Shown: positions 1-64,000 of the stretch, in pieces
How the letters are laid out: every line of letters starts with the position of its first letter
How positions within the stretch are numbered: the stretch's first letter is position 1
Origin: Psammoneis japonica
Taxonomy: Eukaryota
Assembly (NCBI GenBank): GCA_008632985.1
Contig: QPGO01000047.1
Location: 1 to 64,000, forward strand
Reading direction: 5' to 3'
Length of the DNA: 64,000 bases
Translations under genes and position numbers: made by a program
The notes under the pieces: model-generated
Databases searched by the model: none
The model's input: the letters and a program-made list of their open reading frames with translations, nothing else
Told to the model about the DNA's origin: nothing

Positions 1-999
1 CTGGCTGTTGGTGCCTCCCATGCCAGTTTTCTTCATGCACCTGTTGTGACAGTGTGTGGAGTGATTCTGACATTTGCACATTCCTGTTTCCACCCAGGAC
101 AAAATGCTTGCCCTCAACATGACAAGGCACAAAGCAGTCAATGCACACTTGACTTTGGATGCTGTTGCTCTGGTCACCCCTCATCTCTGCTTGTCCTGAA
201 AGCTGATCTAAAGTGTGATGGACATTTGCACAACTTTAATCTCAGGGCCCAATTGGGGGGGGGACACTGGTGCCACACACTTGGGTGCAATGAGCGGCCT
301 TGCCACAGGAAAGCCTGGCTTGCCATTCAACCCGCAGCAGACTCCAAGAAGGCTTGGTTTCACAGGGAATGCACTTTGTTGGAACCTTTCTTCAGCAGCT
401 TTGTGGGGTCACACTCTCTGCACTTGTCCTTGTGAACATAAAGAAAAGACTGTTGAATGGATTTGGTGCCTTTTTGATTGAATGCCAAGAAGCTGGAGGA
501 ACCAACCTCAGCATGGCAAAGTGAACTGGAGTGAAAGGCATCCTCAACATGCCTTGACACCTTCTTCATGTTCAAAAGCCACTCTCAAGCAAGGCGCCCA
601 ATGCATCTTGGAAACAAATGCAGCCCATGTCATCCCCGGCAACATCACCACAATGCTGGCTGCATCTCCAAAGCCACGTTGCTGCTGTTGAATCCTGCAC
701 CTGTGCAGCTGTTGTCAAGGCACGCATCTTGTCCAACCACCTCAGCATCCACTGCTTGTCCTTTGCCCATGTCACCAGCACCAGCATCACCACAATCTGT
801 GCCTTCTCCACCATCATCTGTGGTGCCTTGAACTGCAGCATCATGTTGACACCCTTCATCCTTTTCACACAGTCAAATCTGTCTTGTTTGGCAGAACCAT
901 CCACTCAGGCAGCACCTTGATGATTGCTCATGTCTCCTTCCATCATTTCTGCAATGTTGTCACAGTGCTTTCAAACCCGTGATGTGGCAACATGCCTCC

Positions 1000-1830
1000 A
1001 GCAAGAACGCAAAAATGCCACTCCAGAAAGTGAGAGATGACCTGTTTTGCATGGATCAAATTGTTCTGGAGCTGGCAGGCTGAAAGGAGCAGGGCAAATT
1101 CAACAAGAAGGCACCACTGTGACAACAGTCCATGACACATGTGACAGTCATGCCATTGATTTGGCAAAGTGGTTGAAAAGAGAAAAGTCTTGAACATGGC
1201 CAGATCTCTTGTGATCAAGTGGAGTCAACGTTGCATCCACATCCTTGTCTCTGTTCTTAAAAGCGTTTCCCCAAGGCATGAGCAATCCGCCATGGCCAGA
1301 ACAATGAAAGCAGACCAAATCTCCAGGAGAGCCATGTTTGACCAGTTTTCAAAGCCCTGCAATCACAGTTTGTCTTGTGGGAAAGAGGTGATTTCCATCA
1401 TTCACAATTGCCAAAATGTTGTGTTCTGGGTGCCCCTGTTTCTCAACCAGATGGTTTTTCATGTTGAGAACATTGTTGTGACAGCTGCTCAATTGTCCAC
1501 TCTGTTGGAGACAATTGACACCACCAGCGGTGCCCTCTGGGTGCCAAAAAGGGTGTCTCCTTGACATCCAATGGCCTTGAGGATTTGACATTGGCCATCT
1601 TTTGCCAGCTCTTGTCGGAGCAAGAGTGGCAGCTGTTGAAGGGTCAAGTTTTTGTTGTTGTGTTTGCATCAAATGTTGAGAAGAGCACTTGTGCAAGCCA
1701 AGCCCGCATGCCCCACTGCATCAGGAAGGTTGACCATCACGTTTGACAAGCTCGTGCTTGTTTGTTCTCTGTGATGGCCAGAAATCATTCCTGCTTCTGC
1801 TGGAGTGCATTCTGCTGCTTGATGATCAAA
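1000..1830 (-). pseudogene. Type III metacaspase (C14 peptidase, p10 domain N-terminal to p20) pseudogene
   Basis: Minus-strand fragments in order: PAEAGMISG..EQTS..SNV..LPDAVGHAGLACTSALLNI (p10), SSRPLDV, GTQRAPLxGVNC..GQLSSCHNNV, GDLVCFHCSGHG (catalytic His; canonical FHYSGHG) and VTCVMDCCHSG (catalytic Cys). Stops and frameshifts are present. Confidence 0.85.
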
Positions 1831-2387
1831 ACCAGACAGTGGTGGTGATGATGATTGCGAAGGATGAGCAACATCATTGCTGCTGTTTTCTTGGTTGTGG
1901 CGGTGGTTCAAGAGGTGTGTTGCCACAACATGTTCAGTGCAACAGCACAGAAGAGAAGTGAGAAGATTCCAGATTTTGGATTTTTCCAAAGAAAATGACA
2001 GCATCTGACCACAGCTCCAACCTGTGGCTCATGAGTTTTCATCTTCTTGCTCATCTGCATGACACAAGGAAAAAGCAAAATTGCCACTTCTGACATGGAA
2101 AGGCATCTCATTTGATGCACTTTTGTCAGCACAGCTCCCCACTCTCTCTGACTCTCAATGATGCATGGACATTTTAGTGAACTGCCTTGCAAGTGACTCC
2201 AGCAGACAATGCCGAGGATGGCTGTGCTTGGGTTGTCAACGTTTTGTTGCCATGGCAGAGCCGCACAAATCACACCAGCAAAGGTGCTCAAGGAGGAGCA
2301 ACTTTTGGCTGCAAAACAGAGCAACATGCAAAAACCAGCTTTTGGTCAGAGTTTCTCCACTCCACCACCATTTTGCAAGTCAACACA

Positions 2388-2389
<2 letters not shown>

Positions 2390-2445
<56 letters not shown>
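2390..2445 (+). repeat. (AG)n microsatellite
   Basis: Perfect AG dinucleotide run of ~56 nt. Confidence 0.98.
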
Positions 2446-2448
<3 letters not shown>

Positions 2449-2508
2449 ACACACAACATCACAGGTGTTTTCATGGCTGGAAAGAACCTTCATGTGTGGC
2501 AAACAAGA

Positions 2509-2618
2509 AGGGGTGAGTGGACAGCAATGGTGGTGAGCCCATGTGAATGGTGTTGTGAAGTCAAGGGGTGAGTGGTCAGCAATGGTGGTGGGCTCATGTG
2601 AGTGGTGCATTGAAGTCA
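2509..2618 (+). repeat. Imperfect ~55-bp tandem duplication
   Basis: ggggtgagtggacagcaatggtggtgagcccatgtgaatgg... is followed by ggggtgagtggtcagcaatggtggtgggctcatgtgagtgg... Confidence 0.85.
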
Positions 2619-3564
2619 TTTTTTCTGAAAGTTGGCTGGAGAGTGTGTGCACTGAGCAGTTTGAGGTTCCACTCACTGCAGGGTCCAGCAGAAAGATGTG
2701 TTTTTTTTGCAATTTGAGTTGCTTGAGCTCATTTGAGTCAATGAATGCATTGAAAATGAATGAAATGTTGCCTGCATTGGAGACACACCTTGGTGCACAC
2801 CTGGGCATGGTTCTTTGTGGAAAGTTTCTTGTGCAGACTTCACATGTGCTGCTTTGATTTTCACCTCCTGTTTCAAATGCTTGCTTTCCATCTCATCCAG
2901 CTGCTGAAAGCCACCCTCCTGTCACACAGTCTTCACACCTGTCACAGCTGGCAAAAAGCCACATCTCTCACACCTCAGGGTTTTCCACCAACACATGTGA
3001 ACAAATCCAAAGACCAGAGCAATCAAAAGGCATTGCACTCAATGCAATGTCTCTCACACCAATCACATCCATGTGTTGTTGTGCTCAAGAAGTGACACTT
3101 CAAATGCTGGAGTGCAAAACATGACCCTGAAAGAAAGAGAGAATTTGGTGCACTGGCACATTTGCTGGTCCAGCAACAAGTCGAAGGAGCATTCTTTCAG
3201 GCAGGAGACACAAAGCTGGAGTTTCAGAGCTTCTTGTTCAATCTTTGTCTGGCAAATGTTGCAATGGGCTTCAGAGATTGTTCAATGCTGCTTTGGGCCA
3301 TGGAGCCCAACACCCGTGTTTTGCAAAAATCAAATGGGCCCACCACACAGAGTGCTCAGCTAAAGGAAATGGAGTGGAAGGCCACACTGTCATGCTGTTC
3401 TTGGCCAGAGTTTCACCCACCACCTTTAAAAATGAACAGAAAAAGGCTCTGGATCACAATCATCTGCAAGCAACTTGTGGACATCCAGCCAGAACATGCT
3501 GTTGTCCAAAGACCCCACGCACTCTTGTCAGAGTGCTGCTGAACCTGCTGGCACACATGCATGA

Positions 3565-3755
3565 TGCATGCATGACAATGACTGGATTCAGGCCAGTGAA
3601 CTTGAGCAATGCAAAGCACAAGAGTTGATGCCTTGAACTCTTGTGAAAGTGCTGCCAACCTGCCAATGCACATGGCATGTGTGCCTTGAACAGTGGCATG
3701 ACAATGGCTGGATTTGGGCCAGCCAAATTGGGCAATGCAAAGCACAGGAGCTGGC
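3565..3755 (+). repeat. Degenerate direct repeat (~60-bp core, two copies ~125 bp apart)
   Basis: gcatgacaatgactggattcaggccagtgaacttgagcaatgcaaagcacaagagttg versus gcatgacaatggctggatttgggccagccaaattgggcaatgcaaagcacaggagctgg. Confidence 0.7.
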
Positions 3756-5469
3756 ACAGCTTGAGAATGACAATGTGCAGCAACGAACATCTTGGAGGTC
3801 AAACCAGGAATGGCAAAGAACTGCTCCTTGGTGCTTGGGTGAGCAGAGCCAGTGGGACCAGACCAGGCAAAGGAACTGCACCTGCCACAGATTTGTTGTC
3901 ATCTGAATCTCCATTGTTGGGGTTGTGAGCTGTTGCCAAAGCACATGATCATTGTCCTGCAAGCCGGCGTCAGAAGCGTCAGTCTCAACTGGGGGCTTGT
4001 CAGACAACATTCTTTGCAATGGCTCAAATGCAAAACCTTTTGATGCAGTGTGCAGTGAGGTTTTGTTGCAAACTGAAGTTCTCGTTGCACACTGAAGTCA
4101 GCAGCAGAGTGGTGCCAACAAGCAGCTGCAAGAAAGACATTCAAAGTGTGCACACTGCCATCTGGGCAAAGCAAAAGAAGTGGTCTAAGACAGAGCAGCC
4201 AGCAGTGTGTTTGCCCCAGCATGTCAAGATGAGAAAGGTGACACAGCGCACATGCCAGCAATGGCTTTGGTGCTGGCACTTGTTGGGCCAAGAAAGGCAG
4301 CACATGCTGCATGACCCAAAATGGGGCAGTCAGACAGGGCAGCTTTGCTTGGCCAAGAGGAGGCTAACCCAGTTTCTTGTGGTGACAGAGAGATTTGTTG
4401 GGCTCAAGTTGTGCTGCCTTTTGGGTGTGAGATGCTGCTGGTCCAAGAAGGGCCTGGGCTCTGATGCAGAGGTTGCATTGAAATGTGATCAAAAAAGGCA
4501 GTTTTTGGAAGATGTTGGAGACAAGAGCAGGGACATAAATTTGTGTCCCTGGACAAGAGGCCAATGTCACTGGAATGACTGAACATCTCTGGGTGAAGAA
4601 GGGCATTGCGAGTGGCAGTCCAGCGGCGTTGTTCATGCCACACCAGCATTGGAAAAGTTTTGCAGTCTGTTTTGTGGGACTGGTGGTGCAGCCTTTTTGT
4701 TGCCAGCGCACATCAGCTCCAAGATTTCCACATGTTCAAGTTGTGCAGGCATTCTCACAGGTCAAAGGTTTTGGTGGCTCCACAATTTTGAACAATGGTG
4801 GTGCTGCCAACTGACCCAAGTCAGTGTTGGTGATGGAACCTTGCAGATTTTTGCAAGTTGAAAGAGAGTTGGTTGCAACCTTTGGAAATTGCACACATGC
4901 CGTGCAGCAGGGATTTGGTTGCTTTTTCTGTGTGGCAGTGGCCAGAGGGCACACAGCATGGCTTGGCAGCTCATGGTGTCACAGCAGCAGTGCAGCAGCA
5001 GGATGATGCCACCTGCCAAATGACCTGCAGCATGGTGTGTGGCAACTCAGTGCAAGTGGTTGGCTGGAGCAGCAAGCTCATGCACTTGCACAGGACGGGC
5101 ATCTGATGGGGCCCCACACAGATCACAAAAACCATCCAGTGCAACATGAAGTGCGCTGACAGTGAGCCTCCTGCCATTTGGAGAAAGGGCCTCTGGCACC
5201 AGGCAAAGTGACAGTGAGTGATCACCATTCTCCCAGCAGGAGCTTGTGACAACCTTCAGCGGCAACAAGTTTGCTGGTGTGGGATGGTCCTCAAAAAGCA
5301 TCTCAATGAGACATGCACAGCACCATGGGGCAAGTCGCAGTGTCACAGAGGAAGAGATGATGGAAACTGGCAGTCCAAGAAAAAGAAACAGAAATCTCGG
5401 GGATCAACGACGGTCGAGTCCAGCGGTCTTCATGAGTCGAGAGATTGTTTCTGAAAAGCAAGCGCAGTC

Positions 5470-6810
5470 AAAAGCAATCAAAACTGTTCCAAAACAAGAC
5501 ATGGCACGCAGTGACCAACAACTGAACATCTAGAGAGGTGCTTTGCTTTGATTTCTTTTCCGCAACGCTCTGGTTCCTCATTTTGCTCATGAGCCGAATG
5601 TCTTCTTCATCATTGAGCTTTGATTTCAGCATGCCAGCAACAAGAGTGACGTGCCTTGGCTTTCGCCATTTTTCATCCACTCCCGTTGCTCATGACACAC
5701 TCTCGTCCTCGTCCACATCAATTTTCTCGTTTAACTTCAATGGGAATTTGTTTGCAGCTTCAAAATCATTGCGCTTCTTCATCTCGCGCTCCTTCCAGAC
5801 TCCAAAAATTGTAACAAGTTTGTCTGTTGTGAACTCTGGGTTGTTCCAGACACAAACGCGGAGTTGGGTGCAGGTGCAGGGCACAACAATGTAGACATGC
5901 CACGCCGCTGCAAACATCTTGGCCATCAGGAGGACCGGCTGTTCTGTCCACATCACTCTGGGATCGAAGAAACTGCAACACCATCAAAAAGGCAAACAAA
6001 ACAACAAGAGAGCATTCAGATGAAAAGCACTTGCAGTTGTGCATGCTGCCCTTGACAACAGCCAAACTCATGTGCTTTGGGAAGCAGCTCAAATGCACCA
6101 CGATGGAGCACATCAATGACAACTGCACCAGCTGAACACAAGCCCATGATGTGGACGAGGCTGTGACAAAAGCCTGTGCGGCATTTGGTGCAGTGGCCAT
6201 GGTCCAAAATCCCATTCCAAGTGCAACCGCTTCTGGGAGTGGACAGAAAAAGAAAACATTGAGGGCAACCAATGCATGCAGTTTGTCCTGTGCACCTGCC
6301 ATTCGTTTGATTTCGCACTCCTCTTCTGTCCATTGGCCCTGTTGGAGAGCATGGCGGACCATGTTGCGACACTCGTCTCTGGCAAGTTTTTTCGCCAAGG
6401 GAGCAAAGGCGATGCCAAACACACCAAAAAAACACAGGAGTGCTTGAAGTTGACTCAAAATTGGCCATGACTTTGCCCCCGGCGATGATGTTCCCCAATC
6501 GGCTCCGTGCATGATGATTGTGCCGGCAGAGAGGAGACACCAAAAAAGCTTCCCGCGTGTGTGGTGCTGTCATCGTGAACCATCTCAGATGCCGTGTTGG
6601 GCCACCCCCTGAATGTGTTTCGCATGCATTCCGCCATTTTTTCAGCGCTGCTGTCGTCGTCCATCAAGTCAAAGAAGCCAGCTTTCTTCACAATGGAGCG
6701 GCATTTTGGTGAATCCTTGCAGGTGTCATGGCACCACGCTGCACCCCAAAGCGCAATTGCCGATGCAATGTAAACAGCAACAGAGGACGATGTGGCATCT
6801 GCAGTCATGG
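5470..6810 (-). pseudogene. Decayed multi-pass membrane-protein gene of unknown family (CpG partly retained, TpA lost)
   Basis: Overlapping minus ORFs 6455-6808, 5766-6512, 5690-5956 and 5468-5680 join into a protein-like sequence with hydrophobic segments and a charged C-terminus. Frameshifted. Confidence 0.4.
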
Positions 6811-6979
6811 CGATGTTTTTGTGCTGTGTCGTTTGCGACAGGGTGTGTGAAGAAACATGAGAGCGGCAGCGCAGCGCGGATCATCGTCGCGACGATGGCA
6901 GAATTGAAATTTCCGGGATTATTTTTGATCAGTTCAACTGTGCAAGAACGGACGGAAAATCTGGAAAATGCTGTGCATG

Positions 6980-8600
6980 TGTGATGGATGCACGGATGAA
7001 GACTGTTTGTGCATGTGATCTCTTTTGGAAGTGCCTGGCCTTGCACACAGTGCAGTCATGGAAGATTGAGTGCACATCGAGTTGGCTCTTCTTGAGACCC
7101 ACAGCATCCCCCCATTTGCAGCTGCTGCTGTGCTTCTTGAGGGTCATGGCATGTTGGCAGTCTTGAGGGACTTTGCACCCATGCTTGTGGCAAGGCACAG
7201 CACAGAAAGACCACAGCTTGGCTTGGCTGGCCATGCAGAACGCCCCCTTCTGTCATCTTGTGACAGTGTGGAAATGCTTCCAGCCCTTGGTGTCAAGAAG
7301 GCCGCTCTTGTTGCATGTGCAGAAGGTGCAGGTGATGGGATTTTCCTCGTGACAACAGCCAGAGGCTTGGCTGTGATCTTCCCACCACTCTCCCACTTGA
7401 GCATGATGTTGCAGCTTGAACCTTTCCAAATGGGGTCATGACACTTCAGAAAACCTTCATGCAACAAGATGCCACAGAACTTCCCCAGATGGTGGTGTCA
7501 TCATCATCTTCTTCATGTTCTTTGCCATTGTTGACCAAGCAATTGAACTTGGCAAGTTCCAGGTTGTCAACAACTTTGCTGTTGCAGTCTTTGACAGCCT
7601 TCACAGCATGAGCTTGGCGGCGGTTCTTTCCATCCTCTTGTGGCTTCATGAGCAAGGTGCATCTGATGATGGTGTCTCCACAGGATTGAAAACTGGCATC
7701 TTGTGCACCCTGATCTCCCCGTGTGATGAGCCACATTTTGGAGATGTTGTGACAAGATTTGAAAATGGGTGAAGCAGGCTGCTCATCAGGAGGATCAAGG
7801 TGCAAGTTGTGAGCCAAAAGATTGTGGGCAGCAGGATGCATGTCAGACCTGTGCAGAGTTTTCTGGGTGTCATCAGAGATGGAATCTTGAAGGTCATCTG
7901 GTTGCCCACATGTTTGGCGACACCAATGAAATGACCACACAGCTTGTGGCATTCAAACAGCCAGCCAGAGTTGCCAAGGTGGCAGTGGACAGGTTCTCAC
8001 CAACATGAAAGTGCAAGAGAGGGCTGATGTCAAGCAGAGCTGCTCAGAATGTTCACGGGAGTGTGCCAGTGCAGCTTTGCAGGTGCGGCGGCTCAGAAGA
8101 AAGAAGCACATGCACACAAGGGCAAGCAGCCATGTGGAGCCATGGCGACATTGGCCATGTTTTTTGCTGTCTGATGGCAGTGTTCAGCAAAGTTCTGGCA
8201 CAGCTGTTGGCGCTCACTCTGCTGGCTGGAGACAAACAGGGCAGGTGTGTGGGATCCCAACAACCATGTTGCTGATCTTGACATCAGCTTGACTGCTGGC
8301 AAGCTTGGAGGGAGTGCCGCAATTGTTGGCATTGTCTTCAAGAGTGTCGACAAACTCATTGTGATGGTTTTGGTGCCAGCACACATGCCCATGAGACAAG
8401 AGATTCTGCACCCACAAAGAGCTGGGTGCTGATGCAGCTAAAGTCTTTAGCAGGTTCCACTCATGGTGGGCATTGGGGGCCAGGTCAGGAGATTTGCAAG
8501 CACACAGTTTTGAGGGTGGCCACCTGACACACCCCCAACACCAAATCATCAGCAGGAGCCACTTTTCAGCACATCAAAGCCCATCCCATCATTTTGACAT
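6980..8600 (-). mobile_element. Ty1/copia (CoDi-like) LTR retrotransposon pol relic (integrase to pre-RT region)
   Basis: EFVDTLEDN..GTPSKLASSQADVKIS and QQLCQNFAEH (integrase). HEGFL..DPIWKGSSCNIMLKWESG.ITAKPL matches the diatom copia WKGSxYNVxxEWExGEIT motif. HKHGCKVPQDCQHAM..KWGDA matches YKYGYEVPRDYxHA. Confidence 0.8.
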
Positions 8601-10617
8601 GCTTGCTCCTCAATGAATCTCTTCTGCAATTTCTTGTCATTGTTGCTTAACTTCATTCATTTGGGTTTCAAGCTTGTTGAATGAGCCCAGGATTGAGCAC
8701 AACAAAATGTCAGAAACAAGTTTCCAACAAGCAGGTGGAGGAAGGCAACTGGTGCTGCATGTGCATGGTGCTGTGGCAGGAGTGCTGCTTTGTGGTCAAA
8801 GCAGCTTGCACACCCTGGTTTTCTTGCACCACCATCTCATCCTGAATTTGGCTGCACATCATTGAGTGCAATCTTTTTTCAAAGCTGGTGCCAGCATCAG
8901 AATTTTTTTCCAAGTTTGCCAATGAGCGCACACTTGCAGCAACGGAGCTGCCCCCTCTCATCTCTTCCAAACAAGCAGGGCTTTTGCTTCAACCTCTTGG
9001 ACTTTCAAGCCCAGCACAAACAGCTTCAATGCATCGTGTCATCAAAAGCAGCAAGCTGTTGTTGCAGCATCTGGCTGATGACTTTGTGCTGTTTGAGCGG
9101 TGCAGCCAAATTTGGAGGACATCACAGGGGTGAGATGCAGAGAGAGCCAATGCTTGCTTTGCCAGTACAAAAACACTCTAGCTGTTGTTGACAGCATGCA
9201 TGAGTTCAAAATGAAGGCAATGAAGATGAGGCTCACAACAGCCTCTGACAAACACATTCTCAGAGCTGCTGGCGAGTGCACTTCAGGTGGGGTGCAAGGG
9301 GGAAGCTCAGACCCACCCTGAACACTGCATCACAAATGAGTGTGAAGCATGCGATGTTGCACCGGCAAGTGATGATTGCAAACGGGACACTCATCATCCA
9401 TCATGAGTGTGGGGATTGTTGACAAAATCTGCTTCCTGACTTCATTGAATCGCAAATCGATCAAATTTTCTGTGTGTCTGGCCGTCGGTCACTTAGCCTG
9501 ATTCATTCAGTCATGCGTTGTCAATAATTATTGATTCACGCATTCGTGACAGTGGGCACTGGTATGAATGGACGTTGACAAGACAGAAAAGCGAGACATA
9601 CAACGGACGAAAGCCCAAGACGCTTCTAAACATCGGACAAAAACGGGAGTGTCGCCCTCTAGACTACTGCCTCTCACTCCGATCAGCCTGAGCAACGGCG
9701 ATGGCCGCTGGAGAAACATGAAGCCAGAGTTTCCCGAAACCGCGAGGATGTTGTGGAACATAGCAGAAGACTAACAAAAGTATGGTTGCGCAGAGTGCTT
9801 ACAATGGTGCCATGACCTGCACGTACTCATGCTTCAAACATGCGCTCTGACAGTGTGTAAATAGAGGCTCCAAAAAATGCAAGAAAGCTTTGTGCTCAAA
9901 CCCACTCTAGTCTCTCTCTAGCTAGGATGCTCAGTTTCCAGTCAGTTGAAAATCGTAGCTTATGTAACAAAGGCGTTCTTCACCATGTTGAGTGCAGCGT
10001 GGGATCTGCCGAACCGGCGCAAATACAGTAGGCTTACTATGATCGCCATGATGTGCCGACACAGCAACGTGGAAAAGAGGTTCGCGGTACACTAGATTCT
10101 CGTTCGAGTAGTGTCAGAAGGTTCATCTTCGTCCCTTGACTGATGGATCCCTTTGATCCCGTGTTATTCCTGCCACCAATAAGTGAGGCCCATCAGGATA
10201 TCTCTGCCGATAAATGATGAATAGCCTCAAACTTTTTACTACATGCGAGATATTTCTTAGGGCTCGAATTATTTATGCTTGGTGATATTTATGAAGTATT
10301 TATGTCACGTAGACTCTACGGTTTCTTTGGTACTTAAGCAACACTTATTGCGAATCCCCTAAATAACGAAAACATCGTTTGTTATTCATCGATTTTGATT
10401 GGTTGGTTTTGAAATTTTCAACGTCACAAGTCGAAACGGATTACCGGATCGAATCTGTTGGTTTTGTCGCTCGGGATCAGCGCATGTGGCCATTTTTCTT
10501 GTTTTCCTGCTTCTTCTCTTTCCATCCGCCATCACCAAGTTGTAGCTAGATAAGCCCTCACTTCAATTCTTATAAGGAGAACTTCACATCATACGCAGCA
10601 TCAAAGAATTCTCGATC

Positions 10618-12399: not shown

Positions 12400-12549
12400 G
12401 TACAGTAACAACAAGCTATCATAATACTCTAGAGAACTCGTCATAAGACTAACAGTAGTTTTCCATGTTTAGCTTTCGTCTCGTGGTGGGACAAGTATGC
12501 CTCCAATTCGTTCATTCGAATATTGTCAATCCGTAGCTGCTGTTACTTT

Positions 12550-13123
12550 TCAAATTCCGTATTTAATTTTCATAGTCAACAAACCCTGCTGACCAAGAAG
12601 GATTTCATGGAAAAAGGTAAAGACGCCAAGCCAAACAATGGGTGTAATATCCACGCCAAACGCCGGAGGGACTGTGCCTCGAATTGCCTTCAGCAGTGGT
12701 TCGGTCGGCCACGACACCAAACTCCAAGGCAATTCATTGAGATCGGTTGTAGGATACCAAGACAAGACCACGCGACACAACTGAACAAAGAAAAAAGTAT
12801 TTTTTGGTGAGAATTCAATGTAGGAGAATCATGAGATCAAAACATTGTCAGCCTCGAAAAAAGCCTACCATTGCAAAGGAAAAGAGATTCAAAAATGGAT
12901 CCAACACTAGGGCCAGTGGCTGAACCCAAGGCTCGGTTTCTGACAAAAGAAATGAATGAGATGAGACTGCGGTTTGAAGCTCCACTGGATCCACCACGAG
13001 TTGCAAAGAAGTTGCACTTGGCGAGGACGACAATCGCGTATTTGCCCGTGGTGGTGCAAACGCCCGAGCCATTGTGACCAACATCATGATGCATGCCAGC
13101 TGGAAATACCGAAAGAGTCCCAT
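12550..13123 (-). CDS. CCB3: YGGT-family protein, CCB3-like (cytochrome b6f heme ci assembly), plastid-targeted; intron 12781-12868
   Basis: Signal peptide plus ARAFAP motif. GT-AG intron joins FAM|LCRVVLSWYP...PTEPLL...PPAFGVDITPIVW...EILLGQQGLL, the CCB3/YGGT signature. Confidence 0.85.
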
Positions 13124-13544
13124 GATTTGTTGTTGTCTGCTCGTTTCGATCTATGTATGTCGAATTGGTTGTAGGGACTTCGTTTTCCGATGGCACATAC
13201 ACACCACAGAAGCAAAATAAGCACCAAATCACCAAAACCAAAAAAATAAAAAATGTGACGGTCGGTCTGCTGACGCACTCGCGCGTTGTCCGCCGTTCGT
13301 TCACCGCGAACAGCAAATTTCAATTTTTGAGTCGAAGGGTTCAAAATGTCAAATTTTGGCGCGCGGCCCACTTTTACTACAGAGAATGTGGTACAGGGCT
13401 ACATACGAGCTCTAATACCATATCTCACGTATGCCGATCTTTCGCCTCTCGATGCCGGCCATGGTCGATCGCAGTCGCTGTCGGCTTTGTTGAAAGCAGC
13501 TGCAATTGTTATTATCAAACTCTGAGGCACTTTTTTGCGTCAAC

Positions 13545-18201: not shown

Positions 18202-18282
18202 AGTAGGTACGCATTATATGCATGAGTAGCATGGTTTAAAATCTAAGTATTGGGCATAGCAGTTGTGATGCACCCTAATGAT

Positions 18283-43236: not shown

Positions 43237-43291
43237 GGGACTCGATTATTTAGGGATGCGTTGCTGCTACAAATTAATGGTGTCTAGCAAT

Positions 43292-51429: not shown

Positions 51430-51610
51430 CCAATGTTTCTCAGTGCTGCAGTCAAGTTGAGTCAATTCATTGGAGAGCCAACATGAATTCAGAGTGCAGC
51501 AACAGCTGCAGTCCACAACAACCAAGCAAAACAGCAACACAACTTCCCTCTTTGCAAGAAGCATTTTTTGAACATGCACGGTCTCAAGGAAGTCCAACAT
51601 CTGCTCAGGG
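51430..51610 (+). pseudogene. Decayed paralogous fragment of the 42076-43236 gene
   Basis: tccacaacaaccaagcaaaacagcaacacaacttccctctttgcaagaagc...ggtctcaagg-aagtccaacat aligns to 42978-43066. Confidence 0.9.
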
Positions 51611-51799
51611 ACATTCCCAAATCTGCCATCTTGAGACTGCTGCATTTGTGAGACTGGCCAGACTGGACTGGCCCTGGTGATGCAGTGCTTGAGCAATTTT
51701 GTAAAAAACCAATTGTGATTGTTTCTGCAAGATCTGCACAAGTGGTTGCAGTTGTTTCACAAGAACCTGACATGACATCAAGATGACACCCCATGCAGT

Positions 51800-54670: not shown

Positions 54671-55229
54671 AAGGGTTTCATCGAAGCTCACTCTTGGTGC
54701 AATTCTTGGTGCATGTTCTTGGAGCATTGCACACTTTCCAACTTGGTGCCTCTTTTTACATTTCAACAAAACCCATTTGTGACATTTTAAATGAAGCCAA
54801 CTTAAATTTTGGTTGAAACATGATCACAACACATTGCACATGTTTGAACTCGATGCTGCTCTCCTTCAGAATGTCCGCCACTTTGCATTGGATTTGGCCA
54901 TCTGGCTTGCCTTTGCTGTCCCAACTGCAGTCATTGAGAACATTGTGCTTTGTGTGAGCAAACCATGTGGTGCAGTTTTTGTTGAAGCCAATGGCTGTGG
55001 CACTCTTCTTTGCAACAAATGAGCCACACGTCTTGTCAAATTTGGTGCGGTCCTCCTCAGGGACTTGGAAACACAGGATGGGGGGGGGGCACTTCTGATG
55101 TGCTGGAATCAAATGTGACCCTCACATTCTGCAGAAGGTTGGGCAGTGCATTGCTGCTCTTCTTCACCTTGCAACCTTCCTCCCAGGTGACCATGGGCCA
55201 CTCAATGCTGTCCAGTTTTTGAAACCCAC

Positions 55230-55620
55230 AAGTGGATTTTGGGGGGGTTGCTGTTGAAGGTCTTGGCTGCATCGCTGCCTCTGGCCTTGACAGTGCCCTT
55301 TTTGGCCTTCTCACCAGCACTGCCACCCTTGGTGCTGCTGTCCTTGCTGCTGCTGTCTTTGTCAGTGGCCTTCCTGGGCTTGGCGGCACTGCCACCCTTG
55401 GCGCTGCTTTCCTTGGCAACACTTTCCTTGGCAACACCCTTCTTGGTCTTGGGGCTGCCCTTGCCACCCTTTTTGGCCTTTGCTGCACTTTTCCTGCCAC
55501 CCTTGGCAACACTGTCGGCCTTGGCACCACTGCCCTTGGCACTGTCAGTGTCCTTGGCAGTGCCCTTCTTAGCCTTGTGGTGCGCAGCAGTGTGGGTGTG
55601 TTCTTCCTTGGCAATGTGGC
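55230..55620 (-). other. Lys/Ala/Gly/Ser-rich low-complexity coding-like repeat (AKGG/KAKKG), relic or gene
   Basis: KAKKGTAKDTDSAKGSGAKADSVAKGGRKSAAKAKKGGKG... is open for ~130 codons and built of gccaagg repeats. Confidence 0.55.
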
Positions 55621-57859
55621 AGCATTGCCAGGGACAGCCTTCCTCTGTGCACCACACAGAGAGAGAAAAACGTTTTTTCAATGACCTTGGCAACAAGTGA
55701 TTGTCACTTGTTTGTTGAGAGCCAAAGATTGCACAAACTGGTTGGATCTTTGCTCTCACCATTGACCAAATCAACATGTGTCAACAAATGTCACAACTTT
55801 TTGGGATCGCCAAAACAGGCACATGTTCAGTCACATGGGAAGCTCTGGGTTTGTGAAAAAAAAAGAAGAGGAAAGGGAGGAGGGGAGAGAGAGTAGAGAG
55901 GCCTGCATTCAATGTGCACGCATGATGGCCACATGTCTCACGCACCTCAGATCTCAGACAAAACTGCGACAAAAAAAAAACAACCATGGTGGCAGCAACA
56001 GCCACCACTTGATTTTGTTGCCAAACCTTTTTCTGCACAAAAAATGAATGTGTCACATTCTACATCTTTCTCTGATGAGTGCATGCAACAAAAGAGATGC
56101 AAGAGAAAATCCAAAAACAGACAAAAACTCCCTTCTGGGATTTTGCTGCTGTTGGTGCTCTATCCTCACAACTTGCGCATTTCAATTTTTGTTCACATTG
56201 GACAGATTGGAGAGCACTCTTGGAAAACTCTGTGTGCACATGTGGAAGACAAGGTTGCCCTCATCTCCAAATGTTGTGGGCCAGCACATGGCTGGTGTGG
56301 GAGTCAACTGTGTGGGAGGAGCAGCTTCTGGGTGGCACAGGAGTCATCAGGGCATTGGAGTGGCCAGACGGCATGGCAGTTGGTTTGGCTGGAGCAGCCA
56401 GTTTGCACAGGGAGTGGGTGGTGTTGGAGCAGCTGTGCAGCATGGCAGTTGGCAGTGTTGGAGTGGCCAGGTGGTGTGGCAGTTGGTGGCATTGGAGCAG
56501 CCAGGCAGATGGCATTGTGGTCAGCATGCAAGTCTTCAGAGTGGCCTTTGGGGGTTGTTGGAATTGGTCAGCATGGCAGCACCACCAGGCAGCACTGTCA
56601 ACACATGACAGGCAATTCACAATCTGCCACTTTTGGAAAAGTCCATGCACAAAAGGCAGACAAGGTTGACCTCATCTCTAAAAATCATGGGCAACTGCTG
56701 AAGTTTCTGACTGCAGCAGCAGCACCTTGGCATTTTTTCTGCAATGATGTTCATGTGGCATGAGATGCCGGAGGCTCCCGGCCACACATGTCTGGTCTTT
56801 AAATGGCTGCCTTTGATGGAGTCATTGGCTTGTCAAGGTCATTGGCATTGGAGCTGTGAGGGAGAGGTGGCATGAGAGTCAGTGGTGCTGGAGCAGCCAG
56901 CTGCTGGTGCTGGGAGAGAAAAAAGAAAGATGTGTGTGTGTGTGTGTGTGTGTTTGGTGCCACAGCTTGGGTCCATGTCACCAACTGGGAAATCCAGGGT
57001 TGGCGCCAATGTCATTCTCTGCATGAGTGCATTTCCACCATCACAAGTCCACCACTGTGATGCATTTCCAGCATTGTGGCCATTTGGTGCTTCCCAGTGT
57101 GGCACCCTGTCCTCAACCAGCATGGTGCAGTGCTCCGTGCTGTTGGGCTGTGCCATGCAGCTGTGATGTGGACCTTCTTTGTGGCTCAAACTACACCAGA
57201 AACAGCACTGCACCTGACAAGTGGAAGCTTTTCTTTGTCTGCTTGCTCAGTTTGGTGGAGGATCAAGCACTTGGCTGTGCCACCTGACAGCTGCCAATTC
57301 CAACACAGCTGCATTTTGAGCTGACAATTGATGGCTCAGCACTCTCCTGCAACTCCAAATGGCTCAGACCTTTCTGGTGGGTTTGAAAGAGAGGTGCAGA
57401 AGGTTCACACACAAGCTTTGTGTGTGTGTGTGTGTGCTCAGATCTTTTGTGTCTCCCCACTCACAAGAATGACTGTTCTCTCTGCACCAGTGCTGTTGTG
57501 AGTGGCGGCAGTTTGCTGTGTGGTGTGAGCTTTGATTTTCTGTCTTTAACCTTTTTGCAACATGCCAAGTGAACAGGTGCTGTGTTCTGGAACATCTGAC
57601 AATGCTCGCCAAGTGGCCCTGCCACTCACCACTCAATGTCCACCAGATCACTCCAGCATGCATTCATGCATGTAAAGTCATGCAAACCATGCTGGTTTTG
57701 GTTGTTTTGGCATGCTTTTGCAAATCTTGGAAGCACTTCCTGAAACATCTTAGCTTTGCTGCTGGCAACCTGACAGGAATGCCATCCCTTCCACCTTGCT
57801 CTGCAAGGAACTCCAAAGCTTCAGACATGGCACTCTCTGCCATTGTGACAGGTGGCTCA

Positions 57860-59204
57860 GAAGGACACTCAGCACCGTCGCTTTTTGATGCCATTGCTGA
57901 AGAAGCAATGCCACGATTGGACAGTTTCAACCAGCAAGAAACAGCAAACACTGCACGGGCCTGTGCTGCTGTTGGACACCCAGCGCTGTCACTTTTTGAT
58001 GCCATTGCTGAAGAAGCAATGCCGCGATTGGACATTTTCAACCAGCAAGAAATGGCAAACACAGCATGGGCCCATGCTGCTGCTGGACACTCAGCACCAT
58101 TGCTTTTTGATGCTCTGTTGCCAAAGAAGCAATGCCGCAATTGGACAGTTTCCACCCGCAAGTGACAGCAAACACGGCATGGGCCTGTGCCACTGTTGGA
58201 CACTCAGCACCGTCACTTTTTGATGCTGTTGCTGAAGAAACAATGCCACGATTGGACAGTTTCCACCCACAAGCAACAGCAAACACTGCGTGGGCCTGTG
58301 CCACTGTTGGACACTCAGCACCGTTGCTTTTTGATGCCATTGCTGAAGAAGCAATGCCAAAATTGGGCACTTTTAACCCCCAAAGCCCAGCAAGCATGGT
58401 GCGGGCCTTTGCCGCAGTTGGACAGTCAATGCCGTTGCTCTTTGATGCTGTTGCTGAAGAAGCAATGTCAAGATTGGGCAATTTTGCCCCCCAAAGCCCA
58501 GCCAGCACAGCATGGGCCCACTGTGCACTGCTGCTGGGCATTCAGCACCGTCGCTTTTTCATGCCGCAGCTGAAGCAGCGGCATCGAAATTGGACAAGTT
58601 CACCCCACAAGGCCTTGCAAACTTGATGTGGGCTTGCGCGGTTTGTGACCAATTCAGTGAAATTCTAATTGGAGATGCACCACGCATTGCGCACGCTTCC
58701 CATTCCACTGCCGCCTCCTTTTCTGATGAAGAATTGTGTCAACTCCACCAAATTCATCTTTGGCATCTTGAGAAAGGGAAGTCATTGTTGCTGCTTGATT
58801 GTGACTTGCAACAGAGGTGTCAAGAGGCTTTTGTTGGAAAAACAAGGCAATCCATCCAAGCTGCAAAAGGATGTTGTCAGGACACTTTTGGACCTTGGAC
58901 TTGACCCCCAAAGGAAGAATTCCAGATGGATGTGGGTTGCAGCTTGGGTGCAGTGGTCAGGCATTGCAATCGAGAAGTTGCCATTGAAGTGGATGGGCCA
59001 AGCCACTTTCTTTCTGATCAATCACTGACTGGTTCTATGATTCTAAAACATCGCCAGCTTGCAAGATTGGAAAATTACAGCGTGGTGTCAGTGCCTTGTT
59101 GGGAGTGGAATGCTGTGGCAGAAAAGGACCCAAATTTAAAGTCAGTTCAAGAATGGCACAAAAAGCACTTGTTGGAAATCCTTGGTCAAGCGATTGCAAG
59201 TTAG
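57860..59204 (+). pseudogene. Helical-repeat (37-aa HPR/OPR-like) + RAP-domain RNA-binding protein pseudogene
   Basis: About seven 111-nt repeats (GHSAPSLFDAIAEEAMPRLDSF.PQ..ANTAWA.A), then RAP VAIEVDGPSHF...TGSMILKHRQL..VVSVPCWEW. Frameshifted. Confidence 0.9.
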
Positions 59205-60030
59205 GTTGAAAAAAAAAAAGAGGAAGGGTTGTCTGTCAGCTTCTCTCTGCTGTGCACTGATGCAAAAGAAACGTTCGCACCACAGTTTTTGTTTGTGGCA
59301 CAAGCAGCCAAGCTTGTCAACCAGTCCACGCATCGAGTTTGGCTCTGCACTCTTGTGCGTTTGGCCATGACGACTCTCATTGCAGCCGCATTGCATTCGT
59401 AGCATGCAGACTTGAGGCCTGGTTTGTTGGGCTCTGTGTGCTTGGCTGCACAGACAATTGATTTTGAACACATGTGTTGCAATGCGGCTTGAACCTTTTG
59501 AGAGGATGACATTTGCAACAGACATCTGGCTTCAGAAAAATTGCGTTGGCCACTCAAAGTGCCAACATGTGGATTGCACTGGTTCTGATTCTCCTCTCTG
59601 CTTGTGGCAGACATGACCTTCATGACATTGGCACACAAAGCAACCTCTGCCTGCAGTCTTCATCCAATGCGAGCAAAGCAGGTCAAATGAAATTGTCATC
59701 CATTGAACAATGGGGTGGCTTGTCAACGCAAGTTTTCACCTTGCCATTCAAGTGTCCAACGCAGTTTCACAAAATGCTGTCACATTGTCAAAAGGTCACA
59801 GCGGCAACAGCATTCTCCACCTGGACGCAATGTTCAAAGCTGTTCCCAAAGCAGGGCACCTGAGCACCTCAATTCCAACAGATGGTTGTGACTCGCAGAG
59901 ATGTTTCTGCACCAAGCTGGACCAGTCAAACACTTTGCTTTCCCTGCCAACTCGATCCAGCCAAGTGACAATCACACCCATGATGAAAGAGCAAAATTTT
60001 TCAAAGAATGAGAACAAGGTGGAACAGCCC

Positions 60031-60340
60031 TCAATCATGTGAAGCACGGGACACGGACTCCAGCAAATGCTTTTTGCACCATTTCCTGCCAGACTTCATG
60101 GACGAATCTTTTCCCAACACTTCATCCCATTCCCAATGTGGACCTGACAAAAGAGTGTAGACTTCTAGTTTCAAAAGCTGGCAACATTTCAATTTGGTGG
60201 ACCCAGTTGGTGATCGATCATGGATTGATCTCAAGACCATTGCAAATGCATCAATGGACATGGAGTGGGACCCTGTTGCAACAAATTCAATGGGAGGAGA
60301 GCCAAGGGCAGAGAAGAGGCAGCAATGTCCCCTGGTCATT
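60031..60340 (-). pseudogene. Second RAP-domain relic, inverted relative to the first
   Basis: TGSTKLKCCQLLKLEVYTLLSGPHWEWD...WCKKHLLE, paralogous to ...PCWEWN...WHKKHLLE at 58990-59200. Confidence 0.75.
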
Positions 60341-60689
60341 TGGATTCTCCCGTTTGCAAATGTTCATCATGAGCATTGTCCAATTGATGGGAAGAAATGG
60401 CACAAAGGCTGTGAGAAAAGGAGAGTTTGAAGGGAAGACAAGTTCTCAGGGGTGGTGTTGATGACCAGTTGGGAGGAAATGTTTGCCACACATGGGACAA
60501 TCATTTCGCATGGCAAAGGGGGGCACCATTGTTCATGTTGCAAAAACAAGTGAGATGAAGATGAGTGGGGCAAGCCAAGTGGTAAAAACAACATGTGGCA
60601 GGTGACAAGATTGCATTGAACAAGTCAACTTGCATGTCACCATGCAAGATTGCACCTTGGTTTAATGCACAACATCAGTTGTCTGCACA

Positions 60690-61600
60690 CCGGCATGTGG
60701 TGCTTGCACAAAACACTTGACAACACAAGACAAATCTGACCAGATGTGGTGGCTCCTGCTCTGTGGCACTTGTCATGGGGAAGAAGCACACAGCTTGCCC
60801 TGTGCTGACAACTGGCAGAAACCACCAGTGACATCTTGTGTGATGTGAGATTTCCACAAGAAATGGAGATGTGCAACATGACAGAAGCACATGGGGTTCA
60901 AATTTGCAACCCTCATGATGTGGGTCAAATGCAGCCAGCACATCAACACACCCACACTCAGCAGAATGAGTGCAAGTCATGTGAACTTGTGTGGTGCACA
61001 CTTTTGGGTCTCATGTGTCCTGCTGGTGCTGCAGTCTTGTGTGTCACAAGATGTTGCTCTGGCATCTGCCAGCTGTCCCAGCTTGCTGCTAAAGTTTGAA
61101 GAATGTCAGACAAGTCCTTTGCACACTCCTTTCTTCATTGGGAGAAACAAGAACCCCAAGACAGCTGGCTTGCATGACAAAAACAAAGTCATTGCTCCAG
61201 AAGCATTGCTTCAGGAGCATTGCTGCAGAAGCAGGATGGCTGCTGGCATCATCATCCCAGAGAGACACAAACTGAGGTTCCGTTGCCAATGTGACAACAG
61301 CTGGCACAGTGTGCAAGCTGCAGTGTGCTCCACATGCTCCAAACGCAAAGCGCATCAGAAGACAAAAAGACAAAACCAGAAACATGGGAAGTTGCCAGAA
61401 AAATCAGCTGAAGTTGTGCCATGGGAAATCCTGTTTGCAGATGCTGCAATGAGAGGTTGCACTCACTGTCAAGCAAAAAGGGAAAAACTGCTGCATTTGC
61501 AGGCAGTTGTGGTGATTGACCCCACAACAGGATGGCTTGTTGTTGCCAAAGAATGTCTGGTGGCTCCATGGCCCTTGTCACGGAGAAGCATGTGGTGCAC
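60690..61600 (+). mobile_element. Ty3/gypsy LTR retrotransposon relic (integrase zinc finger and core start)
   Basis: KVIAPEAL.Q, W..V...V..CS..K.HQKTK..KHGKLPEKSAEVVPWEILF.D, and LQAVVVIDPTTGW (cf. KYGKLP.K.AE..PW..LCVD...LTMIDPATGW). Confidence 0.75.
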
Positions 61601-64000
61601 CACCCCACTCTGACAACTGGCAGATGCCAGTGATGTCTTGAGCAATGTGAGACTCCCACAAAGGGAGATGTGCACAATGAAAAGCACATGCTGTGCAAAC
61701 CCGTGTGACTTGCACTCATTTTGCCAGCAGATGTGTGCTGGCCCAACTCAACTGCCCCCTGCCTGAAGCCATGTCTGGTGAGCAAATGCTCTGCTCATGC
61801 TGTGCATTCTGCGGCATTTGCCCACAGCTGTGCCAACTCAGAAACAGCTCTCACTGTTGCCATTGACCACAACAACCTTTGTGGCTGCTCAATGCCCAGC
61901 TCTAAATTAAGTGCACAGGGCAAGACAGCTGGGAATGTTTGCAGCAGATGGCTTTGAGATTCAACACACCTGGCATGATGCTTCAAACAATGCTCAGCTG
62001 GCTGGGTGCTTGCACACTGTCCTGACAAGAAGAGCTTCAGTCTCTGTTTGCCCACTTGCAAAAAAGTGGCAAGCACCATGACAGCTGCTCTCACTGCATC
62101 AATTTGCTGCAATTTTCTTTTTGTTGAACTCTCAAAGCACCTGTGCTGTTGAGATGATTGCTGCTGCCTCATTTTGTGTGTTGGCTGCAGGTGCATTTTG
62201 GCATGGCTGGGGGAAGGGGGGGGAGACATTGTTGCTTCACCTCTGAGAAGTGAGAAGGCTTGGGCATCATCATCAAATGGTGCAGCAGCCACAAACCCAA
62301 CTGCACAGCATGCACCAGCTGATGATTGGCCATGTGATGGGGCAGCACCTCTTGTCTGCAGGGGCACAGGGTTCACAAAGAATGAGCTGCATCACTGTGT
62401 TGGCTGTCTGTGCCCAAATGCACCATGGCTTGAAATGAGCATGACAGCATGGAGCACTGCAGGCCAGAGTTTTTGTGCTGCACAAAGTTTTGTGCACATG
62501 TCAGCTGGCTCTGCAATCAAAGCAGACAGAGCACAGCAAGATGACAGTGCATGCAGCATGGCCTGACTCCACAGCAAGCATTTGCAGCACACAGCAGAGG
62601 AGTGTGGTGCATGCTGCAGGTGTGTGCTGTGTGTGTGTGCAAGTGTGGCAGGGCCACACTCATGTGTGCACAAGTGTGGGGCAGTGGTGCTGGGCCTGAT
62701 GGCAGGGAACAGCAACAATGTTGTGCCAAGACAGTTCCCCTGATTTTTCTTCCTGCTGACAACATGAAAGCAATGGAGCAGCCATTGCAGCACAAGGCAA
62801 TGGCACAGCACATGACACATGCTGTGGGGTGTCATCCGACCCAGCAACAAATGGCAAACCTTCCAGACCTGACATGTGGGACACTCTCCATGTGACATTG
62901 GCCAGCAGATTCTGCATGTGCAAGCTCCACAGTTCAAACATCAGTTGACAAACCAACAGACTTGTTTTTGAAATTTAAACAAACAAGCAAAGTTTGCAGC
63001 ACAGCTGCACCTCTTCACCACACTGAAGTTGTCAAACAGATCACCCAACAACTGCAATCTAAAGTGTCACAGAACACCACCAAAGTTGCACAAAAATGCA
63101 CGTGCACATGGCGCATCTTAAAAAAACACAAACATCCTTGAAACTCAGCAGCAGCATGTGATGTCCTCCCACCTGCAGCTGTTGCTTGGGCAACCAGAGC
63201 CATTGCCATTTTTTGCAAAAAAGGCACAATGACAGACCTCCAATGAAACAAAAATGGAGGAGCCACAACTCTTCTGCTGGAGCACATCAGCTTTGCTGGC
63301 AGATTGCTGGCAGGTGGAGCCTCAGCCAGCCACCAGTTCAGCAGCAGATTTGACTTGCTCCTGCAGGATCACAACTCAAAATTATGAGCTGGAGTTTGGC
63401 ACCTGCTCACATGCATTGATGCTGGTGCTGGTTTGACAGGCTGAAAAAGCTGGTGTGTGTGATTGTTGACAAGCCCTTGAAAGAAATGTCTGCAACAAAA
63501 ATTTTGCAGTCTTTGGCCCTCCATCTGTGAGGACAGCAGCACAAACTCATCAGCTGCAAGGTCCAAATGTCATCAAATCAAGTTGGTGTGGTGGTGGGCA
63601 CATCTGCCACATCACAGAGCCTGCCACAGCACATGCTGTTCAGGCTGACAACTGGCAAACACTGGCAATGATTTGTGTCACATGACTTCCATGTGGCAGA
63701 AGCCATGCAATCTAAAAGCGCACATTGTGCAAGCATGAATGACTCACACTCATTCTGCTGAGCAGTTTTGTGTTGTCTGCATGTTGCATGGCCTCCTGCT
63801 GACACAAGCAAGAAGAGGAGCTGGGGTCTGTTTGCCTCCTGTGTGCAGAAGTGTGGCAAGGACCATGGTGACAACTGAGTCTGACTGCCCTGATTTTCTT
63901 GCAGCATTTTCTTTGTGTTGAACTTGCAATGCTTGCATTGTCAATGGTTGTTGCTGTTGCTGCTGTTGCACTGGGGGGCTTGGGGATGACAAGATGCGAC

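Follow-up and report, generated by a model that had tools for sequence, protein, structure and literature searches.

In a 64,000-nucleotide stretch of the genome of the diatom Psammoneis japonica (positions 1 to 64,000 of contig QPGO01000047.1, assembly GCA_008632985.1; hereafter the window), two blocks on either side of a gene-dense core have lost nearly all of their TA dinucleotides and most of their CG. The missing TA steps were converted to TG and CA by T:A to C:G transitions that follow a neighbour rule of their own, are restricted to the blocks and do not depend on the loss of CG. Tentatively, we favour an account in which ordinary decay of methylated CpG is accompanied by a separate, enzymatic T:A to C:G hypermutation at TpA in silenced chromatin, perhaps through deamination of adenine. 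We regard this as a new, hypermutation-type decay of silent DNA, with its own TpA sequence preference, that matches no described process. Neither joint purging of CpG and TpA nor a TpA-specific T:A to C:G change of chromosomal DNA was found described in the full-text literature, a body of work that leaves most subscription journals outside and excludes supplements. The available portions of papers on diatom methyltransferases, diatom retrotransposons and the Cyclotella methylome also contain no mention of joint purging.

Two purged blocks flank a gene-dense core

Likelihood change-points at 9451 and 47655 divide the window into a left purged block (1..9450), an unaffected core (9451..47654) and a right purged block (47655..64000) with the same signature as the left. 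Every comparison of flank with core below rests on these two blocks and one core inside a single 64-kb window. The core is distinguished by Pfam matches, normal observed/expected (o/e) ratios of CG and TA, and spliced RNA contigs; its genes include those for a TPR protein, a DDB1/CPSF-A protein, DGAT, a RabGAP, an OYE reductase, PI-PLC and a GLUG-motif protein (Pfam). In 2-kb windows, flank o/e ratios are 0.04-0.41 for CG, 0.02-0.20 for TA, 1.63-2.12 for TG and 1.73-2.11 for CA, against 0.82-1.13 for CG and 0.36-1.16 for TA in the core. Expressed as densities, TA falls to 2.2 per kb on the left and 3.0 on the right (core, 37.3-39.2) and CG to 14.1 and 8.0 (core, 56.9-57.7), with TG and CA in the left block at about 1.6-fold the core density. 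Among overlapping 1-kb windows, 90 of 96 in the flanks combine a TA o/e below 0.2 with a CG o/e below 0.5, and none of the 147 core windows has a TA o/e below 0.2. The initial annotation had described both flanks as nearly devoid of CG and TA around a normal core, and the o/e ratios, the densities and the change-points all bear this out.

The flank DNA is complex sequence, not simple repeats, with five tandem arrays only, all of them short. Because TA is gone, the stop codons in the blocks are almost all TGA (239 TGA against 14 TAA and 5 TAG on the plus strand of the left block), and long chance open frames are common. Gene finders are thereby misled in the blocks.

Lost TA became TG and CA by transition

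Relative to the core, the joint deficit of CG and TA is 78.8 per kb in the left block and 84.1 in the right, and the joint excess of TG and CA is 81.2 and 90.1. Since the CG deficit by itself (43.6 and 49.8 per kb) covers only about half of this excess, the lost TA must also have become TG or CA; some 35 TA per kb were so converted, that is, T:A to C:G. TG and CA gained about equally. The G+C content barely differs between flanks (0.49) and core (0.48), a flatness that is expected if C to T change at CG is offset by A to G or T to C change at TA. The steps AA (76.8-80.2 per kb in the flanks, 77.2-79.8 in the core) and TT (77.8-78.4 and 76.8-78.8) show no depletion, and AT falls only as far as a model of TA loss predicts. 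A balance this clean implies almost pure transitions, as would be expected of a miscoding deaminated base.

These numbers agree with the proposal, made from the sequence at the outset, that a second process beside CpG decay strips TpA by transitions on both strands. The further argument of the initial annotation, that CpG decay and fungal repeat-induced point mutation (RIP) both leave the TpA loss unexplained, is upheld by the share of CG in the balance and by the RIP indices given below.

Direct comparisons point in the same direction. Flank positions 51496..51600 (+) are 81% identical to 42957-43066 within a core gene, and along this pair four CG steps of the core stand as CA or TG in the flank, and one GTA as GCA. 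At 1628 and 1667, where the window reads TG and CA, a paralogous read contig carries TA. The segment 7338..8004 belongs to a high-copy family, with a read depth of 1173 against about 60 and many partial contigs and joints; the sequence adjoining other copies of this family keeps CG and one GTAC, and that adjoining expressed paralogues keeps CG and sometimes TA. This family would be the best one for a genome-wide comparison of mutated with intact copies.

Sequence rule of TA loss

We scored the survival of TA in each tetranucleotide context as the observed count over the core-scaled expectation, using the 70 TA steps that survive in the flanks. Survival is highest in TTAA (0.72; 22 observed, 30.4 expected), followed by CTAA/TTAG (0.27), CTAG (0.06), GTAA/TTAC (0.06), CTAC/GTAG (0.05), ATAA/TTAT (0.04), ATAG/CTAT (0.02) and GTAC (0.01), and is nil in ATAC/GTAT (0 of 170 expected) and ATAT (0 of 69 expected). 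Since each TA is open to change on either strand, the whole of this series is explained by a single per-strand rule: A changes to G in T-A-C and T-A-T about equally, less in T-A-G and far less in T-A-A. Read on the opposite strand, the same rule is T to C change in R-T-A, weaker in C-T-A and far weaker in T-T-A. It follows that TAA should yield CAA, not TGA, and that TAC should mostly yield TGC.

A context-aware simulation of both processes on the core reproduced the trinucleotide changes of the flanks with r=0.945 and a root-mean-square deviation (RMSD) of 5.4 per kb, compared with r=0.925 and 6.2 for a uniform simulation and an RMSD of 16.4 for no change. The observed gains of TGA/TCA are smaller, and those of TGC/GCA larger, than the uniform model gives. 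Within the core itself the order is inverted relative to the flank survivors, with depletion strongest in TTAA (o/e 0.26) and weakest in GTAC (0.89); thus the TA process does not act there.

TA loss is uncoupled from CpG decay

The loss of TA is INDEPENDENCE from CpG decay, and the two processes are uncoupled. In all 25 one-kb flank bins the retention of TA lies between 0 and 0.19, whereas that of CG ranges from 0.03 to 0.78: the one loss is uniform across the blocks and the other patchy. At 5001..7000 TA is purged (retention 0.11 and 0.05 in the two bins) and CG largely kept (0.52 and 0.78), and for 6501-7000 the o/e ratios are 0.95 for CG, 0.07 for TA, 1.67 for TG and 1.62 for CA. In a RAP-domain pseudogene of the right block, CG retention is 0.23-0.42 and TA retention 0.08-0.19. 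The borders also differ. The left fringe (9180..9493) holds no TA and 9 CG, and the right fringe (47609..47782) no TA and 8 CG, where about 11.7 and 6.5 TA would be expected at core density; at both borders the TA-free zone thus extends beyond the CG-poor zone toward the genes, by 170-310 bp.

The neighbour preferences of the two losses are likewise distinct at the 5' position. CG survives best in GCGC (0.44) and least in CCGA/TCGG (0.08), with higher survival in GC-rich contexts, as in ordinary decay of 5-methylcytosine (5mC); the spacing of the surviving CG steps showed no periodicity. Change of CG to TG and CA is symmetric, as methyl-CpG decay predicts, and the patchy retention is compatible with unmethylated islands. 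The available part of one study describes a centric diatom in which repeat blocks as long as 30 kb carry CpG methylation (PMC5124317). The CG component of the blocks accordingly resembles the decay of vertebrates and of methylated diatom repeats: symmetric conversion to TG and CA, patchiness with CpG-retaining islands, CG/TG polymorphism between reads and assembly, and better survival in GC-rich contexts. As an account of the whole shift, however, methyl-CpG decay fails, since it reaches about half of the excess of TG and CA and none of the TA loss.

Relic genes in the blocks

Across three relic families, 9 of 11 conserved tyrosine columns now read cysteine or histidine and none reads tyrosine, compared with 11 of 12 kept in the intact OYE gene of the core. 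A metacaspase pseudogene at 1091..1570 (-) matches the structures 4afp_A (E=4.2e-10) and 4f6o_A (E=4.7e-10); both of its invariant tyrosines have become cysteine (GINY to GVNC, FHYSGHG to FHCSGHG), and a conserved tryptophan is now a TGA stop.

The RAP/FAST-type pseudogene extends over 57.6-59.2 kb, with its C-terminal, RAP-domain part at 58554..59219 (+; Pfam RAP E=8.1e-13; 47 intact relatives). Its named relatives are mostly centric diatoms, among them Thalassiosira oceanica and Stephanocyclus meneghinianus. By comparison with homologues, PYWEW has become PCWEW (TGT at 59097), and in a second, inverted RAP relic at 59992..60321 (-; 11 tblastn matches) it reads PHWEW (60127-60141, with CAT at 60138). 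Where tyrosine is the commonest residue among the relatives, 6 of 7 columns of the RAP relic carry TGY or CAY, against 31 of 505 columns without tyrosine (Fisher p=6e-7). In columns with a consensus of at least 50%, tyrosine was kept in 0 of 5, phenylalanine in 19 of 24, tryptophan in 11 of 16 and histidine in 8 of 8. The FAST/heptatricopeptide-type repeats of this pseudogene form a 111-bp tandem array at 57863..58633 (+), recognised by Pfam FAST_1 and by tblastn of intact relatives. Its copies mix CG, TG and CA at identical columns, which implies independent decay after duplication.

We identified a Ty3/gypsy-type integrase relic at 61299..61548 (+), comprising an H2C2 zinc finger and the start of the rve core, from 48 relatives, their Pfam assignments and a codon table; all but one of 47 tblastn matches lie in the 61200-61499 bin. 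Its KYGK motif has become KHGK, with CAT in the relic where 83% of 47 relatives have tyrosine, and a second tyrosine column, in a poorly aligned stretch, reads threonine. Further changes in the relics fit both processes: threonine to methionine (ACG to ATG), arginine to histidine, proline to leucine, and leucine to stop (TTA to TGA). A Crypton/Ndc10-type relic at 53575..53925 (+; Pfam NDC10_II E=8.6e-08) lies downstream of, and in the same frame as, the motif GLCLL.

All motifs cited in the initial annotation are present in the six-frame translation of the window. Its claim that tyrosine has become cysteine or histidine holds against homologues for the metacaspase, RAP and gypsy relics; copia HKHGC and Crypton GLCLL are present as motifs only. 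No usable match to a solved structure was obtained for the Crypton-like, RAP, integrase-like and copia-like relics. Pfam searches of the 128 flank frames of at least 95 amino acids returned only NDC10_II, RAP and FAST_1 beside weak, chance-level matches, those of the whole-frame read-through of the left block returned no family in any of the six frames, and of 437 candidates compared with the frame 5769-6569 (-), which lies where CG is retained, not one scored. Repeat annotation fails in the blocks, with TAA and TAG stops nearly absent, tyrosine lost, and cysteine and histidine gained.

Authenticity of the letters

Contigs built from 31-mers of a public DNA run (X1) were compared with positions 1-20000, which cover the left block and the adjoining core. 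They span 30 of 30 bins with the same letters, and a single contig of 18,515 bases matches 2459-20000 except for 10 letters and 6 gaps. On either side of the left border the depth stays near 60; the exceptions are one bin at 1173 and five at 72-93. Whereas the initial annotation supposed a repeat-restricted, RIP-like process, the left block is by X1 depth (85% likeness or more) mostly single copy, at the copy number of the genes, and the blocks include pseudogenes of ordinary host genes. The initial annotation had named Illumina or PCR-amplified reads showing TA or CG at the purged sites as the mark of a base-calling artefact on modified DNA; in the left block the X1 contigs agree with the assembly, and a nanopore base-calling artefact is very unlikely. 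An RNA-like run (X2) gives spliced contigs on the core and leaves nearly all of the left block uncovered, which is no evidence of silence. A perfect (AG)28 microsatellite occupies 2390-2445 inside the left block, and the reads are apparently cut there.

Timing of the two processes

Outside TTA and TAA contexts only 13 TA steps occur among 6025 CA/TG steps in the blocks. Less than about 0.4% of CA/TG steps have thus reverted by ordinary transition since the last TA purge, taking about six in ten re-created TA steps to fall outside those contexts, as in the core. Many relics have at the same time decayed beyond recognition by Pfam. Scarce reversion together with such advanced decay implies that the purge is continuous or very recent. 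The 111-bp array gave one re-created TA where 7.9 were expected; its repeats may have diverged in a still-functional gene, and we set this count aside.

Read contigs and assembly differ at six positions in the left block; all six differences are transitions, and five lie in CG, TG or CA steps, including a double difference of CA versus TG at 706-707. In the core, two of eight differences are transitions. Thus CpG decay is still segregating in the left block.

Other features of the core

An open frame of 927 amino acids at 36845-39628 (+) consists largely of 15-, 39-, 54- and 108-nt tandem repeats, located at 38367-39615. It is rich in lysine, glycine, tyrosine and glutamate codons (AAG GGC ... 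TAC GAG TAT GCC), is strongly skewed toward G and A (GC skew 0.36), is the one place in the window where TA o/e exceeds 1 and has no Pfam match; its product could be a secreted structural or adhesive protein. The OYE-type NADH:flavin oxidoreductase gene at 30298-31608 (-) has its closest relatives in marine eukaryotes (72-77% identity), and its next best named relatives are from oomycetes (46-53%) and gamma-proteobacteria such as Marinomonas (~58%), which hints at a bacterial origin of this gene in stramenopiles. The DDB1/CPSF-A-type gene (14942-18201, +) comprises two open frames that RNA contigs join by an 89-nt GT..AG intron (16664/16754); other introns in RNA contigs on the core measure 84-103 nt. 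The last gene before the right border is an open frame of 1051 amino acids at 43292-46447 (-) with a GLUG motif (PF07581, E=2e-17).

Discussion

The hypermutation systems known to serve genome defence, fungal RIP and APOBEC editing of retroelements, both attack cytosine. RIP in Neurospora and other fungi (RID/DIM-2) shares with the blocks described here a saturating load of transitions in sharply bounded, silent, repeat- and pseudogene-rich DNA beside intact genes. However, it changes C:G to T:A only, raises A+T and enriches TpA, where here TpA is removed and T:A becomes C:G. Sequence affected by RIP has a TpA/ApT of about 0.89 or more and a (CpA+TpG)/(ApC+GpT) of about 1.03 or less; the flanks have 0.040 and 0.057 for the former (core, 0.63) and 2.04 and 2.07 for the latter (core, 1.21). 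Both indices point the opposite way and G+C is flat, and fungal RIP was rejected. The TCG-type hypermutation of basidiomycetes resembles the CpG to TpG/CpA part of the pattern. According to the available part of one survey, many diatoms carry DNMT4, a methyltransferase related to RID whose function is unassigned (PMC9998398). A Pfam search confined to the window found no RID/DNMT4-type methyltransferase gene.

Among adenosine deaminases, ADAR works on RNA, accepts a 5' A as well as U, and prefers a 3' G, while TadA and ADAT act on A34 of tRNA, always after U33, with bacterial TadA reading U-A-C. The blocks share with both groups, and with engineered adenine base editors derived from the latter, the reading of A as G and the purity of the transitions. 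Hypermutation by ADAR was rejected since AA is undepleted, the 5' T is obligatory, and the 3' preference is for a pyrimidine (C about equal to T, then G, with A far behind). Confinement to retroelements, as an RNA route would have it, was rejected as well: all 25 bins are purged, including pseudogenes of host genes, the tandem array and other DNA, with non-retroelement DNA equally affected. TadA and ADAT are closer, in that their 'A after U' resembles the step affected here and the U-A-C of TadA resembles T-A-Y; only TpA is affected and TG/CA closes the balance, which is what an 'A after T' enzyme of this type would leave, and a thymine target fits as well. Natural editing of chromosomal DNA by TadA-like enzymes is, in contrast, not known.

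We propose that two processes act on the blocks. The first would be the conversion of methylated CpG to TpG and CpA, patchy, still polymorphic and confined to the blocks. The second would change T:A to C:G at TpA only, on either strand equally and much more completely than CpG decays. This second process may be enzymatic, aimed at silenced chromatin, and serve genome defence by mutation: so strong a dependence on context, the near saturation and the sharp borders suggest an enzyme directed by chromatin state and not passive chemistry. In the chemistry we favour, adenine or N6-methyladenine (6mA) at TpA would be deaminated to hypoxanthine and copied as G; adenine is the preferred target because the outcome is almost purely transitions and because TadA and ADAT obey the 'A after U' rule. 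A wider formulation seems possible to us as well, if somewhat doubtful: a natural base-modifying enzyme, whether an adenine deaminase or a miscoding modifier of thymine, would act at symmetric TpA in silenced chromatin as a second, faster, RIP-like arm beside CpG methylation, with its own borders and T-A-Y rule, and would still be active. A Pfam search restricted to the open reading frames of the window found no gene for a deaminase of the cytidine deaminase (CDA) fold.

Attack on thymine is the most serious alternative, though an unlikely one. A TET/JBP-type dioxygenase would make 5-hydroxymethyluracil (5hmU), possibly 5-formyluracil, at symmetric TpA in silent chromatin; miscopied as C, this would give T to C change at R-T-A as a mutational by-product, much as 5mC gives T at CpG. 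The idea fits every sequence result equally, and the symmetry of TpA would let such a mark be maintained on both strands, as at CpG. It is also in keeping with base J, which in the telomere repeats of kinetoplastids occupies a T that precedes A, and with the mispairing of 5-formyluracil with G; J, however, sits in TTA, the context spared here, and oxidised thymines and their repair should add transversions to a balance that is almost purely transitions. Dinoflagellates, another algal group of the same stramenopile-alveolate-rhizarian (SAR) supergroup, provide a precedent in the available portions of two studies: TET/JBP homologues make 5hmU, which is enriched on repeats and silences transposons as a pyrimidine mark, and older work found T preferentially replaced in TA and TC in Crypthecodinium (PMC11572971, PMC11071213). 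Those same portions, by contrast, mention no mutational footprint left by 5hmU or J (PMC11572971, PMC11071213), and a base-resolution map of Breviolum is without sequence preference (PMC11071213). Modified thymine in diatoms was not found in the literature searched.

Of the readings without a TpA enzyme of its own, an improbable one makes TA loss a side effect of copying silent, late-replicating or heavily repaired chromatin, be it patch repair by an error-prone polymerase of the eta type, mismatch repair with a bias, or gene conversion that favours GC. Mutation spectra peculiar to heterochromatin are common, and CpG decay in the blocks makes T:G mismatches and hence repair patches. Polymerase eta, as in somatic hypermutation, does produce A to G change at A after T following cytosine deamination, but it targets WA and so AA equally, is strand-biased and does not saturate; here AA and TT are unchanged (76.8-80.2 versus 76.8-79.8 per kb) and survival spans a thousand-fold range of contexts, from 0.72 in TTAA to 0 of ~239 expected in ATAC/GTAT and ATAT, which, with the near saturation, a polymerase bias would hardly produce. 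TA is gone, moreover, where CG is intact, including the CG-keeping fringes, and T:G mismatches are therefore not the trigger. The polymerase eta variant offered in the initial annotation is disfavoured on both counts. GC-biased conversion is disfavoured too, as it would lift G+C in all contexts, whereas only TA is affected and G+C is flat. Less probable again is a single deaminase of dual specificity, recruited in RIP-like fashion to duplicated or silenced DNA and acting as C to U at CpG and A to I at TpA. The ADAT2/3 of Trypanosoma brucei, active on adenine of tRNA and on cytosine of single-stranded DNA, is a precedent; the two losses have nearly common borders and both end in TG/CA; and the RID-related DNMT4 of diatoms, in the available part of that survey, might fit such recruitment (PMC9998398). 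A single enzyme with two activities is nevertheless unlikely, because the losses are uncoupled: CG retention of 0.52-0.78 accompanies TA retention of 0.05-0.11, and 0.23-0.42 accompanies 0.08-0.19, the borders lie 170-310 bp apart, and the neighbour preferences are unlike, CG surviving best in GC-rich contexts. Least probable of all is that no mutation process is involved and that the blocks stem from errors in sequencing or assembling modified DNA, or are foreign DNA of odd composition. X1 may be the source of the assembly itself, its platform is off record, and the right block lies outside the read comparison. Against this, one 18.5-kb contig carries the same letters across the border at a depth of about 60, and noisy long reads would not yield such 31-mer contigs. 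Sequencing by synthesis returns 5mC, 6mA and 5hmU as plain C, A and T, and miscalling CG strand by strand would have left TA as well, yet TA is absent. The genes hit at invariant residues in the relics are of diatom type, and one flank segment aligns with a core gene, showing core CG turned to flank TG or CA. Both nanopore miscalling and foreign DNA were rejected on the agreement of the X1 contig, the diatom-type relics and the core-matching segment.

Several points weigh against the proposal of adenine-directed hypermutation beside methyl-CpG decay. TpA is self-complementary, so that T to C change at R-T-A fits all of the numbers equally, and deamination of adenine in chromosomal DNA by a natural enzyme is not known to us. 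The double depletion (TA o/e below 0.2 with CG o/e below 0.5) occurs in none of 2359 1-kb windows from 658 kb of other algal-type DNA, a set of 78 gene-centred environmental loci from other species that serves as a control only; the 27 TA-poor windows in it are GC-rich DNA with CG o/e of 0.88-1.41. The mass balance and the simulation borrow the composition of the core as the ancestral state of the blocks, and the simulated AGC/GCT, GCC/GGC and GAA/TTC miss the observed changes by 9-10 per kb. The survivors in TAA contexts could have been re-created and not spared, though the hierarchy of the purge holds either way. The read comparison took in the left block and adjoining core only. Finally, tracts left by RIP or APOBEC are strand-coordinated, whereas TG and CA in the blocks show no clustering by strand beyond the level of the core (the runs test gives z of -0.6 and -0.3 for the two flanks against -1.8 for the core, and block variance ratios are 1.1-1.5 for the flanks against 1.4-1.55 for the core). 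This test has low power, because the new TG/CA steps make up no more than about 40% of the total.

If the proposal is true, the erasure of TpA by T:A to C:G change, more complete than methyl-CpG decay, would be a new mutational chemistry in nature. Were adenine the target, engineered adenine base editors would for the first time have an equivalent in nature, one with a defined T-A-Y rule; were it thymine, the process would point to a TpA-based DNA mark in diatoms and to the mutational cost of such a mark. In either case, blocks free of TA and CG would offer a simple signature for mapping silent chromatin in algal genomes.

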